DNA of 15,253 bases from the IMG/VR virus record IMGVR_UViG_2778261687_000008; one strand, written 5' to 3'. A program made the translations under genes and the position numbers. The notes under the pieces were generated by a model. The model searched no databases, was not told the origin of the DNA, and saw only the letters and a program-made list of their open reading frames with translations. The stretch's first letter is position 1, and the number at the start of each line of letters is the position of its first letter. The stretch is from a virus. Lineage: Duplodnaviria; Heunggongvirae; Uroviricota; Caudoviricetes. Positions 5,003 to 10,612 of this stretch are shown here, piece after piece.

Positions 5003-5140
5003 TCATACTCCTGCTCCTGTCAGGGTTTTGGCGTAATTCTTCAGTATTCGGTAATCGGTCAAAACAGAACCGGGGAAACGATATAAGCGCAGATGCCCCC
5101 AGCGGTGGCGAAGAAGTTCTGCCATATAAAACTCAAACAT
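5003..5140 (-). CDS. ylcG: Small protein YlcG-like (45 aa)
   Basis: Manually translated ([45 protein letters not shown]). Below the ORF-track length cutoff. Its ATG overlaps the rusA stop (TGATG). Confidence 0.55.
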   Translation of the reverse strand: MFEFYMAELLRHRWGHLRLYRFPGSVLTDYRILKNYAKTLTGAGV

Positions 5141-5501
5141 CATTCATTCCCCATTTCGGTGATGGTCAGTTCCAGCCTCCCACCTTTGGTAACAGGCATC
5201 TTCACAACGCGGTAATCAACGACCTGAGCATCATCCAGCCAGAAACCTGCTTTGGTGAGTGCGTCAAAAGCGGCTTTTTGCAGATTATCCAGGTCACGGC
5301 GACGGCGATCCGGCATGTGGCACTCAATACGGATTTTCACTGGCATAGCCAGGCCGATATCCAGCATTGCGTTTTTAATGATTCGGGTGACGTTATCGCG
5401 GTATGCCTGCCCTTCTGCGCTGATGTGTGTGCGCCCGCGATTATGGCGGTAATAGCGGTTATTGCTCGGAGGCCAGGGAATGTGATGCTGTAGGTATTCA
5501 C
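5140..5501 (-). CDS. rusA: RusA Holliday-junction resolvase; N-terminus is frame-disrupted (possible pseudogene or non-canonical start)
   Basis: The core ...[24 protein letters not shown]...[28 protein letters not shown]... is in one frame back to a stop at 5521-5523, with no ATG/GTG/TTG before the Met at 5365-5367. A GTG-NTYSIT N-terminus-like segment (5481-5501) sits in a different frame. Confidence 0.6.
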
Positions 5502-6406: not shown

Positions 6407-6504
6407 GCTTCACCTCCGCAGAGGTCAAACGTTGGATGCAAAAAATCGCAGGTGCATTTCTGCATCTGTGAAGGGAGAAGAGAGTTTAGATTGTATGTGC
6501 GCAT
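6403..6504 (-). CDS. ylcH: Small cysteine-containing protein (33 aa), ylcH-like by position
   Basis: Manually translated [33 protein letters not shown]. Its stop overlaps the ybcN GTG start (GTGA). Identity rests on position and size only. Confidence 0.4.
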
Positions 6505-6832
6505 AAACGTCCCCGTTTAGCGCAAACCCACCGCCGGGTGTTCAGGCCGACAGTAACTATATTATTTCCTACTGTTTTTTAAAAATCAAAGGCCTTTATA
6601 CGTCACACGAGAGCAAATATTTCCGAAGAAGAAACCTTTCGCCTTGAAAGGATAAAGAGCTCATTTCATAAATTGAAATATTCAATAAGAATATTGCAAA
6701 AAATGAAATTATTTACTAGCGAGTCTATCTAACTGATAATTATGAAGATTGTAAGCGGTAGCAATCACCCGCATACACATTGAACAGGATTTAATACAAA
6801 ACGTCTTAAATTGTCCGTAAGGAATAGCACGA

Positions 6833-7849
6833 ATGACTCAAACTCCACTATTACTTGCAATCATATTTTTATTGGTTGTTCTTGTTCTATATATAGCTGC
6901 AATCAAACGCATCAAAAAAATACAATTAGAATTAAGTGATAGCAATCAAAAAAATGAAGAATACAAATCTCGCTTTGCAGATTATTTTAATGTGGAAGAG
7001 GAATGTAAGAAGCTTATTGAGAAAACAGAGCAAGAATGCTCCATTATAAAAGAAGAGTCCCAAAAAGTAAAAGAAAATGCCAATAATGAACTAACAAACA
7101 CCATTGAAAAAATGGATGGTATCAATAAACAAATCCAAGAACTAAGAAGAACTTATAAAGAGAAGAAAGAAATATATGATAAGCTAGTAAAGCAAATTTC
7201 TATTTATTCAGAAGATGTTGAACTAGCCGAACTAGGATTTTACGAACCTCATTTTAATTTTGAAGATTCAGAGCAATTTAAAAACAAAATAAAATCCATC
7301 AGGGATGAACAGAAATTAATGCTGCGGGATAAAACCCACTCTGGTGCAGTATATTGCACAACCCAATGGACTGTTGAAGGCTCTCGAGCAGAGGGTAAAA
7401 AAATGACAGACAGAAATATTAGGCTAACTACTAGAGCATTTAATAATGAATGTGATGCTGCAATTAGTAATTGCACGTGGAAAAATATCACTAAAATGGA
7501 AGAACGCATCACAAAGGCATTTGAGGACATAAATAAACTAAACGAGCAAAATCACATATATATAAATACTAAATACCTTAATAAAAAACTTGAGGAGTTG
7601 TGGCTTACCCATGAATATCGTGAGCAAAAACAGAAAGAAAAAGAAGAACAGGCAGAAATAAGGGCACAAATGAGAGAGGAGGAGCGTGCACAACGAGAAA
7701 TAGAAAAGGCCATGCAAGACGCAGAGGCAGAAGAGCGCCGTTATAAAAAAGCAATTGAAGCTGCAAGAAAGGAAATGGAAAAAGTTACTGGTGACATGAA
7801 GCAGCGCCTCGAAAATCGCATTGCCGAACTAGAACAGAGTTTGTCGTAG
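6833..7849 (+). CDS. Membrane-anchored coiled-coil protein (DUF4041-like N-terminal module; cargo gene A)
   Basis: 338 aa. Single N-terminal TM helix (LLLAIIFLLVVLVLYIAAI), then long E/K/Q-rich heptad-like coiled-coil segments and a highly charged C-terminus. AAGGA Shine-Dalgarno 10 nt upstream. AT-rich codon usage. Confidence 0.7.
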   Translation: MTQTPLLLAIIFLLVVLVLYIAAIKRIKKIQLELSDSNQKNEEYKSRFADYFNVEEECKKLIEKTEQECSIIKEESQKVKENANNELTNTIEKMDGINKQIQELRRTYKEKKEIYDKLVKQISIYSEDVELAELGFYEPHFNFEDSEQFKNKIKSIRDEQKLMLRDKTHSGAVYCTTQWTVEGSRAEGKKMTDRNIRLTTRAFNNECDAAISNCTWKNITKMEERITKAFEDINKLNEQNHIYINTKYLNKKLEELWLTHEYREQKQKEKEEQAEIRAQMREEERAQREIEKAMQDAEAEERRYKKAIEAARKEMEKVTGDMKQRLENRIAELEQSLS

Positions 7850-7879
7850 GCTGAATCAAAGCATCAAAGAGCATTATCC

Positions 7880-8335
7880 ATGGCACAACAAACCAAACAA
7901 GGTCATGTTTATATTATTTCGAACATAGGTTCTTTTGGGGAGAATGTTTATAAAATAGGCATGACACGACGTCTTGATCCACAAGACCGTGTAAATGAGC
8001 TTGGTGATGCATCTGTTCCTTTTATTTTTGATGTGCATGCCATGATTTATTCGGAGGACGCTCCATCATTAGAAAAAAAACTACATGATGTCTTCGATAA
8101 AAAGAGAGTCAATCTTGTAAATCGTAGAAAAGAGTTTTTCTATGTTACTCTGGATGAGATCAAAGAAGCTGTTAAAAAACACTCTGATTCAGAAATTGAA
8201 TTTATTGAGACAGCAGTCGCAAAAGACTTTAATGAGTCATTGGCTATTCGTAATCATGAAAATAAAAAAAGCGACAACAGCAACTCATCAATCATACTTG
8301 AGCGAAAAATCCCAGAGTTTGCAGATGTAATTTAA
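7880..8335 (+). CDS. T5orf172 / GIY-YIG-like nuclease-domain protein (cargo gene B); in frame with gene A across a single TAG
   Basis: 151 aa. Motifs GHVYIISN...VYKIGMTRR...R..EL...PF fit the GIY-YIG / T5orf172 (MUG113) pattern. Weak Shine-Dalgarno. Same reading frame as gene A with 10 sense codons between. Confidence 0.65.
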   Translation: MAQQTKQGHVYIISNIGSFGENVYKIGMTRRLDPQDRVNELGDASVPFIFDVHAMIYSEDAPSLEKKLHDVFDKKRVNLVNRRKEFFYVTLDEIKEAVKKHSDSEIEFIETAVAKDFNESLAIRNHENKKSDNSNSSIILERKIPEFADVI

Positions 8336-8604
8336 TTAATTTGTAGTTAAAACAAAACAGGCATCGTTGATACTTTTTGGTCAGCGATGCTTACATCCTC
8401 CTCTCGGAAAACGTCGATTACTTGCAACTTTATTTTTAATTTCCAGCAGCAAGTACTAATGCACAACCTCCATTACATACTGATTTGAACATCACGAATC
8501 CCGCCTCTAGCTTAAACTACAAAGTATTACCAGAATCAATCTTATTCATAACTAAACTCCACAGACCAATTGAACATATGAATCCATATTGATATGCTAC
8601 ATCA

Positions 8605-8633
8605 CAATGTGTTAACCATTAGATAACACATTG
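8605..8633. promoter_or_regulatory. Perfect 10-bp inverted repeat with 9-bp spacer upstream of the HD-domain gene (candidate operator)
   Basis: caatgtgtta-N9-taacacattg, 62-90 nt upstream of the ATG at 8695. Its right arm overlaps a TTGAAA -35-like hexamer (8631-8636). Confidence 0.3.
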
Positions 8634-8694
8634 AAACTATAAACATCATTACTATTTAAATTTCGTATTATAACTACAGCAAAAGGAAAGCCTC

Positions 8695-10242
8695 ATGACA
8701 AACAAAAACAAACTTGAGAACTTTGAAGACTTACTTCTGGGGAAGTTTTTAGATCCCATACATGGAGTGATTCGAATAACTAAGCTAGAAAAAAAGATAA
8801 TTGACCATCCTTTATTCCAACGACTACGAGATATCAGGCAGAACACGTTTCTATATAAAGTATTTCCTTCTGCAATGCACTCTCGCTTTGAACACTCTGT
8901 CGGTGTAATGCATTTATCGTATGAAATATTAAAAAATATTGATTTAAATGCACTAATTTACAATCGAAAAAATATGGGCATTGATCTATATTTAGATATA
9001 AAAAAAATGCCTTCAAGTCTTATACAGGAGTTACGTATTGCAGCATTGTTACACGATGTTGGGCATGGCCCACTTGCCCACCAATTCGATAGTTTTGCAA
9101 TATCCGTAAAAGATTTCAAAGAAAAATGCAAAACTGAAGGAAATAAACAATACGATAAGATTATATCTTTAAGTGATAATGACAAGTTAACCCACGAACA
9201 AGTATCATGTATTTTTATTAAAGAAATTATTGAAGAATTAAAAAATGAAGCCCAAGATAAATCAAATGACGACGATGTCTATAAAGAAAACATAGCGGCT
9301 ATTAATCCAGAAAGCATTATAAAAATTGTTGATAAAAGATATGATTTTAAAAATAACATTGAGGGAGTAAATGTATATCCTTTATTAGGTTCAATCATAT
9401 CATCTTCACCTATAGATGCGGACAGAATGGACTACCTACTTAGAGATAGCTACTTCTCCGGCGTTAAATATGGGATTTATGATTATGGACGATTATTAAT
9501 GTCATTTATTCCTGTGAAAGTTGAAAATAGTGTTTACCTGGCATATAAAGAAAGTGGTATGGATTCAATACTAGAATTTGCCAATGCAAGAAGTGGGCTT
9601 TATAGTCAAGTTTATTTTCATAAGACCAATCGTGCACTATCTGCGATGCTTAACAAAGCGTGTTCTAGAAAAAAAACTGATGATGTTGTCTATTTAAAAT
9701 CTAAAAACACTCTCATTGAGTCCATCAAACACTTTTATCGTGAAAACCCAGACAAAACGTTTTTAGAAAACACTCTTAAAAACACATTAGATAAAAATTC
9801 TCAAGCTATAATTCAAGATATTGTTGATAGAAATGTTTGGAAAAAAATATATGAAAAAAAACACACGTTTTCTAATGTTAACATTTCCGACAACAGATAC
9901 AAAGAATATAAACAAAATATATCTAAGAAAATCAACAAAATCATTGAGGATAATTTAAAAGGAGATGAATGGGTTCTTGATTTTCAGATTGAAGATAACT
10001 TTAAAGATATCGATACAAGTCAAGCTAAAATAATAAAAAAAGAAACAGGCGGCAAGTATACAATAAATGATTTATGTAAGTATAACGATGTACTTCAACC
10101 CTATCACTATGTTAAATTCTTTATTCGAGTTTTTGTTTCTAAGACAACTCAACTCCAAAACACCGAAGAAATTAATGTGTTAATAAAAAAAATAGATAAA
10201 TGTCTTAATGATGAGATTGATCATATTAAAAAAGACAAGTAG
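8695..10242 (+). CDS. HD-domain dNTP triphosphohydrolase, SAMHD1/dGTPase-like (cargo gene C)
   Basis: 515 aa. Motifs DPIHG (aa 20-24), RFEHSVGV (H67), LLHDVGHGPLAH (H120-D121) and DADRMDYLLRD (aa 241-251) align with the SAMHD1-type catalytic core as I recall it. AAGGAAAG Shine-Dalgarno. Lys-rich, divergent C-terminal third. Confidence 0.85.
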   Translation: MTNKNKLENFEDLLLGKFLDPIHGVIRITKLEKKIIDHPLFQRLRDIRQNTFLYKVFPSAMHSRFEHSVGVMHLSYEILKNIDLNALIYNRKNMGIDLYLDIKKMPSSLIQELRIAALLHDVGHGPLAHQFDSFAISVKDFKEKCKTEGNKQYDKIISLSDNDKLTHEQVSCIFIKEIIEELKNEAQDKSNDDDVYKENIAAINPESIIKIVDKRYDFKNNIEGVNVYPLLGSIISSSPIDADRMDYLLRDSYFSGVKYGIYDYGRLLMSFIPVKVENSVYLAYKESGMDSILEFANARSGLYSQVYFHKTNRALSAMLNKACSRKKTDDVVYLKSKNTLIESIKHFYRENPDKTFLENTLKNTLDKNSQAIIQDIVDRNVWKKIYEKKHTFSNVNISDNRYKEYKQNISKKINKIIEDNLKGDEWVLDFQIEDNFKDIDTSQAKIIKKETGGKYTINDLCKYNDVLQPYHYVKFFIRVFVSKTTQLQNTEEINVLIKKIDKCLNDEIDHIKKDK

Positions 10243-10283
10243 AGCCCCCCTGATGTTTTAAAAAACATCTTAACTATAAACAC

Positions 10284-10318
10284 AACGCCATTAGTTACTC
10301 TCAGTAACTAGTGGCGTT
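10284..10318 (+). terminator. Long hairpin downstream of the HD-domain gene (candidate terminator or processing/stability element)
   Basis: aacgccattagttact-ctc-agtaactagtggcgtt: 16-bp stem (one G-U wobble) with a 3-nt loop, 42 nt after the stop. No U-tract. Confidence 0.35.
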
Positions 10319-10612
10319 CATGTCTAATGATTGACCCGCAGTATTATCTGGTGCTTGTCAATCAGATTTATTCATTGTTTAATACTACCTCAGCATCCTG
10401 TTATACGCTACACAACCATTATTACTCATCCTTTGAGTTACATTTAATATCTAAAATATTTTTGTGTTAATCAATGTGTGGATATATTCCCTACTAATTC
10501 ACTAATTCATACAGCACCAAGCTAGAAACATTGTTATAGTTCCCCGCACAAAGCAAACCATTAAATTTGATTGGATGTTTTCGAGATAACCATCAAATCA
10601 AGTAATAACTAA

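Follow-up and report, generated by a model that had tools for sequence, protein, structure and literature searches.

The locus studied here raises the question of whether a 151-codon open reading frame (ORF) with the look of a GIY-YIG nuclease, found in prophage DNA next to a gene for a dNTPase-like protein, encodes a free-standing anti-phage effector or a part of a larger protein. In a first-pass annotation of the window, which is the whole stretch of DNA analysed (15,253 nt), the ORF had been read as a nuclease effector of its own, possibly cooperating with the dNTPase.

Organization of the SNIPE locus

By its sequence, the locus is a single SNIPE (formerly PD-lambda-1) gene split in two ORFs by one nonsense mutation, with the following features:

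6833..8335, + strand: entire SNIPE / PD-lambda-1 gene, 500 codons plus stop, with the amber codon inside, at codon 339
6833..7849, + strand: upstream ORF, 338 aa, with the N-terminal transmembrane (TM) anchor, coiled coil, DUF4041 and the larger part of the linker helix
6845..6904, + strand: predicted single TM helix, residues 5-24, PLLLAIIFLLVVLVLYIAAI, then KRIKK, read from the translation
7424..7588, + strand: DUF4041 core, residues 198-252 (Pfam PF13250, E 1.1e-19)
7847..7849, + strand: amber TAG from a C-to-T change at 7847; the wild type is CAG, Gln339, as in all four compared relatives
7880..8335, + strand: 151-aa ORF, SNIPE residues 350-500, with the GIY-YIG (T5orf172/MUG113) nuclease domain, C-terminal helix and tail
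7901..8179, + strand: T5orf172 match (Pfam), ORF residues 8-100, with Y11, Y24/K25/G27, R30/R31/R37, E65, N78/N81 and E85/F87
8072..8074, + strand: GAA codon of ORF residue E65, numbered E414 in SNIPE by the numbering map; motif APSLEKKLH; invariant

The 338-aa and 151-aa ORFs share the same reading frame, the TAG at 7847-7849 is the sole break in the translation of 6833..8338, and ten sense codons lie between this TAG and the ATG at 7880. When Gln is placed at codon 339, the read-through protein matches the PADLOC PD-Lambda-1 model (PDLC03976) at positions 1-485 of 491, with an E-value of 1.7e-198 and 658 bits, while the two halves taken singly match positions 1-337 (338-aa ORF) and 350-485 (151-aa ORF). 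Comparison with PHROG shows that phrog_1847 spans both halves as well (2-331 and 343-473 of 474). Since both ORFs fall collinear on the PD-Lambda-1 model and on phrog_1847, they represent one SNIPE gene and not two. NCBIfam had no model for the 151-aa nuclease ORF and gave just sub-threshold noise for the N-terminal half.

PD-lambda-1 emerged from a functional selection in which E. coli DNA was searched for anti-phage activity; a 2022 paper deals with the system (PMC9519451), which was later characterised and renamed SNIPE (PMC13190303, Saxton et al. 2026). All nine residues named in the latter paper (E223, N250, L253, W257, E264, K305, I308, T319 and E414) are found as the same amino acid with the same number in the window protein, therefore the window encodes a colinear copy of the published SNIPE. 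The likeness extends to the length of 500 codons, the succession of TM domain, coiled coil, DUF4041, linker helix and GIY-YIG nuclease, and the setting in an E. coli prophage. However, these modules do not stand on one unbroken polypeptide in the window: codon 339, which is CAG in the relatives, is TAG, and the nuclease is thereby unjoined from the anchor and the DNA-binding part, so that the copy is expected to be non-functional. Judged from its coding sequence, the locus is a disrupted SNIPE-family allele and not a working member. The proposal that the ORF belongs to an anti-phage system is borne out by the match to SNIPE/PD-lambda-1; the stand-alone 151-aa effector was a misreading, as the ORF is the severed C-terminal domain of this protein, 3' of the TAG.

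Domains and conserved residues of the encoded protein

The N-terminal anchor was recognised by eye as a hydrophobic stretch of 20 residues with KRIKK after it, and the upstream ORF also contains a long coiled coil following this stretch. In the 151-aa ORF, Pfam shows MUG113 (PF13455) with an E-value of 4.8e-20 and 72.4 bits (cut-off 22.3) and T5orf172 (PF10544) with an E-value of 3.1e-18 and 66.6 bits (cut-off 20). Both scores are far above the gathering scores, well past a chance resemblance and in agreement with the GIY-YIG domain of T5orf172/MUG113 type recognised at first pass, and both families are members of the GIY-YIG clan. The canonical GIY-YIG family PF01541 was absent from the Pfam scan of the ORF, even at E <= 10; divergent branches usually lack such a match, and membership of the superfamily does not depend on it. 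The nuclease domain shows the GIY-YIG alpha/beta core fold, and an HHpred result in the published work also ties this domain of SNIPE to the GIY-YIG clan (PMC13190303).

The motif strings on which the first reading rested are all present in the ORF at 7880..8335 (+): GHVYIISN at residues 8-15, VYKIGMT at 23-29, RRLDPQDR at 30-37 and EFFYVTLDE at 85-93. An alignment of 38 sequences, 37 of them homologs at 55-69% identity, shows G8, Y11, K25, G27, R30, R31, R37, E65, N78, N81, E85 and F87 as invariant, and Tyr or Phe at position 24; within the strings pointed out earlier, Y11, K25, G27, R30, R31 and R37 are thus conserved. The catalytic Glu had been sought in EFFYVTLDE; however, the essential Glu defined by mutagenesis, E414, maps to E65 in SLEKKLH, a position different from that of the likewise invariant E85, although E85 may matter. 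N78, 13 residues after E65, may be equivalent to the canonical GIY-YIG Asn.

Residues 8-100 of the ORF thus match T5orf172/MUG113 strongly and keep the Tyr, Tyr/Gly, Arg, Glu pattern, but the domain is here the C-terminal module of a membrane protein and not a protein on its own. Sequence identity to SLX1 (PDB 6seh, 7cq2 and 7wme), I-TevI (1ln0), Eco29kI (3mx4) and PD-T4-3 (9u75) is 12-16%, and to the N-terminal domain of UvrC (1ycz) it is 25% over 57 aligned residues. These nucleases also differ in their partner domains and in their biology (Holliday-junction resolution, homing, excision repair and restriction).

Origin and rarity of the amber codon

The gene was compared base by base with that of four fetched relatives (L001-L004), which show one CDS of 1503 nt at the equivalent place and do not keep the 151-aa ORF as a separate gene. 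The change at 7847 is a single-base difference in a gene otherwise 99.9% identical to the relatives, and lies in the helix that links DUF4041 to the nuclease. Besides 7847, the closest relative differs from the window at one further base across the gene, and the 151-aa ORF has zero amino-acid differences with this relative (L001).

SNIPE DNA is present in 131 of 5,426 complete E. coli genomes, with 95-99.9% identity, and is annotated there as one CDS, named "DUF4041 domain-containing protein" or, more recently, "SNIPE associated domain-containing protein". The 61-mer of the window centred on codon 339 was found identical in none of these 131 genomes and with exactly one mismatch in each; therefore, the amber allele is absent from this set. 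Four public contigs were recovered by an exact look-up of the 338-aa product; they come from separate data sets (NCBI GCA_002226155.1, Logan DRR031242 and DRR386160), carry TAG without exception, and include one that has an additional difference of its own. Over 7,017 nt, the sequence of the NCBI contig (GCA_002226155.1) is identical to that of the window. The amber codon is thus unlikely to be an error and is not private to one sequencing effort. Its occurrence in several independent data sets also means that the allele has lasted some time.

Prophage setting

Gene order, taken from the ORF list of the window and the annotation of the relatives, is bor, Rz/lysozyme/holin, porin, Q, rusA, ninE, ybcN, insert, ren, P, truncated O, exo, xis and int. 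The window as a whole represents a defective lambdoid prophage of the DLP12 type, with SNIPE as low-GC cargo. Two of its phage genes are damaged:

5140..5501, - strand: rusA, broken by a 1-bp deletion after codon 7 (about 5478) in relation to the intact 120-aa gene of L001
11589..11900, - strand: C-terminal part only of the O replication gene, which directly abuts exo (11826 onward, + strand)

The rusA deletion shifts the frame at codon 8 and leaves ORFs of 54 and 75 aa, a second loss-of-function lesion in the prophage; RusA is called as 75 aa in L005-L007 too. Gene decay is commonplace at this locus, as shown by the rusA frameshift and by the insertion sequences in other SNIPE copies described below. 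The immunity region (cII, cro, cI and N) and bet/gam are missing from the window prophage, which is therefore defective. In L001, IS5-family elements are found just past the truncated O, and B-1109 is about 4.4 kb longer than the window over the matched region. An Rfam scan of the window found no RNA family.

The insert forms an island of low GC content at 6500..10500 (29-39% against 47-56% in the flanks), between ybcN/ninB and ren/P. Its cargo consists of SNIPE and a gene of 515 codons encoding an HD-domain protein, both on the strand opposite to the surrounding phage genes. The slot acts as a variable cargo hotspot; in L004 it holds SNIPE alone plus others (a P22AR C-terminal domain protein).

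The adjacent HD gene

The neighbour of SNIPE in the window is as follows:

8695..10242, + strand: HD-domain gene, 515 aa, encoding a homolog of SAMHD1/EF1143-like dNTP triphosphohydrolases; a cargo module separate from SNIPE

That the adjoining gene is dNTPase-like had been noted at first pass and agrees with its homology to SAMHD1 and EF1143. Sequence matches in PDB range from E 5e-30 to 1e-25 (2hek, 5e-30; 2o6i, 8e-27; SAMHD1, about 1e-25, residues 19-430), Pfam shows an HD match, and phrog_35128, of unknown function, matches over the full length with an E-value of 3e-136. Homology to the SAMHD1 family is thus clear, but membership in the curated families of the bacterial "dGTPase" defence group is doubtful, as their models match the protein weakly (PADLOC dGTPase, E 0.0018; TIGR01353, 21.8 bits with the cut-off at 152). 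The gene may be regarded as a candidate for an uncharacterised prophage-borne dNTPase defence gene.

The copy of the HD gene in the window is identical to that of L001. Among the 131 E. coli genomes with SNIPE, the HD gene follows it in 21 and is absent from this place in 110. A gap of 359 nt separates the two genes, homology between the window and SNIPE-only prophages stops at about 8397, which is about 60 nt past the SNIPE stop, and ren directly flanks SNIPE in L004. Furthermore, the HD gene is cut to 333 aa both in L002 (3196..4197), where SNIPE is intact, and in L005 (4863..5864), where SNIPE has the amber codon; decay of the HD gene is therefore independent as well. SNIPE and the HD gene are independent modules, and cooperation between them is not indicated. 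A SNIPE-HD operon was considered and rejected on the distribution (21/131) and the 359-nt gap. The scan for promoters was uninformative (17 promoter-like sites in the window against 19.7 expected), and the terminator scan of the window found none on the + strand.

Predicted effect of the amber codon

SNIPE has been described as a single-ORF system whose expression from a plasmid confers defence, and the intact protein protects against lambda and other siphoviruses (PMC13190303). According to the same work, PhoA-LacZalpha topology mapping shows that the TM domain, the counterpart of the helix predicted here at residues 5-24, anchors SNIPE in the inner membrane, and SNIPE without this domain is toxic, moves to the nucleoid and causes double-strand breaks. 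Binding to DNA is promoted by DUF4041, and this domain is also the probable contact for tape measure proteins; SNIPE associates with ManYZ, the lambda DNA being cleaved during injection (PMC13190303). The E414A change abolishes both defence and toxicity, and deletion of DUF4041 leads to loss of defence; a construct with the nuclease but neither DUF4041 nor TM is spread throughout the cytoplasm, and for defence DUF4041 has to be part of the same construct (PMC13190303).

If intact, the 500-aa SNIPE would sit in the inner membrane by its N-terminal TM helix, its DUF4041 would bind DNA and, probably, the tape measure protein of the phage, and the GIY-YIG nuclease at its C-terminus would cut phage DNA at injection, as was found experimentally for the colinear protein (Saxton et al. 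2026). The C-to-T transition at 7847 turned Gln339 of the linker helix into an amber codon, and in a non-suppressor host translation would halt at the TAG and yield a 338-aa membrane-anchored fragment without nuclease. The 151-aa ORF is the orphaned nuclease domain, starting at the first in-frame ATG 3' of the stop, and its product would be made in traces at most, through re-initiation. Because defence is lost both with the E414A change in the nuclease and with the deletion of DUF4041, and so depends on the two domains, the allele is expected to be null; most likely, we infer, the copy is inactive and gives no defence.

Ribosomes of E. coli may re-initiate 31 nt past a stop codon. The Shine-Dalgarno pairing upstream of the ATG at 7880 is -2.1 kcal/mol, a value equalled or beaten by 47% of the 307 ATGs of the window, while the real starts of SNIPE and the HD gene reach -6.1 and -5.6 kcal/mol, respectively. 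In comparison with these 307 ATGs, no Shine-Dalgarno above background is present at 7880; without a ribosome-binding site, the 151-aa ORF would be made in traces at most, and it is presumably not expressed. The nuclease domain 3' of the stop is fully intact, which fits a very recent mutation and also continued use. An undamaged domain is no argument for function, since a very recent mutation would leave the same.

Disruption of SNIPE in other genomes

Three junctions between DUF4041 and nuclease ORFs or their equivalents (L008, L009 and L010), located on megabase contigs from unrelated metagenome and genome sources, were inspected; the SNIPE homologs there are also broken shortly before the nuclease domain. 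In L008 (2478..3941) the frame is interrupted by a TAA at another codon, which precedes the Met of MAQQTK by 20 codons; L010 (2854..3926), from an assembly at 11x, shows a frameshift farther upstream; and L009 (3501..3938), from Leptospira santarosai, is a lone domain remnant behind an unrelated gene, with no N-terminal part. A conserved two-gene form of SNIPE was considered for these junctions and rejected, as they represent three different situations (TAA, frameshift and remnant). In several other complete E. coli genomes, SNIPE is broken by IS1 (hits H5, H6 and H16) or IS5 (H27 and H28), and the pieces are annotated as "DUF4041" or "SNIPE associated" and "GIY-YIG nuclease family" proteins.

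Many homologs among the matches listed for the 151-aa query have 140-150 aa and begin at the Met of MAQQTK. The best 120 matches were all of 265 aa or less, and the full-length E. coli SNIPE, 99% identical, was missing from them; the list thus seems biased to targets of a length similar to the query, and the frequency of short forms in it is uninformative. Counts of "stand-alone" T5orf172 proteins made from lists of this kind would be affected by such a bias.

Alternative explanations

The data are very probably best explained by a recent loss of function in a SNIPE copy, with the 151-aa ORF as an artefact of the mutation. It would be different if the TAG were a sequencing or assembly error in a strain that truly has an intact SNIPE, as a lone base difference from relatives otherwise 99.9% identical might suggest; but the recovery of the same 338-aa product on four contigs from separate data sets, one with a private difference of its own, would require substitution errors to recur independently at one site, which is improbable, and we regard such an error as extremely unlikely. 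Full-length wild-type SNIPE could also still be made if the amber codon were read through, by a suppressor of the glnV(supE) type or by efficient natural read-through. From what is known of supE, insertion of Gln at a TAG derived from CAG would restore the exact wild-type residue, and the domain 3' of the TAG is undamaged. Suppressor tRNAs are, however, uncommon in natural isolates, and basal read-through of UAG usually amounts to about 1% at most; furthermore, nothing within the window points to a suppressor, and the rusA frameshift is another plain loss-of-function lesion in the same prophage, so that read-through is given little weight here. There is a similarly small chance that the amber allele is not dead: the TM-DUF4041 fragment might still bind ManYZ or the tape measure protein where the phage injects and modulate its entry, as a decoy or dominant-negative form, or traces of nuclease from re-initiation or read-through might give a partial, less self-toxic defence. 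In that event, breaks in the linker, found in L008 too, would be a recurrent way of tuning SNIPE.

Two further explanations give the 151-aa ORF a role as a gene in its own right. The TM-DUF4041 fragment and a nuclease translated separately from the ATG at 7880 might both serve defence as a split system, in line with the intact nuclease domain and with L008 and L010, in which a short nuclease ORF is also annotated from the Met of MAQQTK, right after the DUF4041 ORF. The lesions elsewhere differ in kind, however, which points to independent decay instead of a conserved architecture; the ATG at 7880 lacks a Shine-Dalgarno above background; the 61-mer of the window is missing from all 131 complete E. 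coli genomes having the gene; and the nuclease alone, with neither DUF4041 nor TM, is found throughout the cytoplasm, and defence calls for DUF4041 on the same construct (PMC13190303). A functional split system is thus highly improbable. The two-gene defence system put forward at first pass, in which the 151-aa ORF would be a GIY-YIG effector on its own that acts jointly with the neighbouring dNTPase, is hardly credible. The two genes adjoin on the same strand in one low-GC island, and both domain types are known from defence systems; but the ORF is a fragment of SNIPE, which as a single ORF defends from a plasmid (PMC13190303), and the HD gene does not follow SNIPE in 110 of the 131 genomes, with ren directly after it in L004. 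The 359-nt gap, the end of homology to SNIPE-only prophages at about 8397 and the shortening of the HD gene to 333 aa in L002, where SNIPE is intact, also speak against such cooperation. A recent loss-of-function SNIPE copy remains the preferred reading.

Significance

Because SNIPE/PD-lambda-1 is already characterised, the locus is a known system with a rare nonsense mutation and not a novel one, and it matters chiefly for annotation. Gene callers split it into a "DUF4041/SNIPE" protein and a "GIY-YIG / T5orf172" protein, which wrongly suggests a small independent nuclease that works with the adjacent dNTPase. Spotting a SNIPE gene disrupted by a nonsense codon avoids this error and keeps the strain from being counted as SNIPE-positive in surveys of defence systems. 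Furthermore, the allele adds a small data point on how SNIPE is repeatedly lost from E. coli prophages: the cause is an amber codon in this copy and an inserted IS1 or IS5 in others. We would only suggest that such recurrent loss would fit the cost of a nuclease that is toxic off the membrane.
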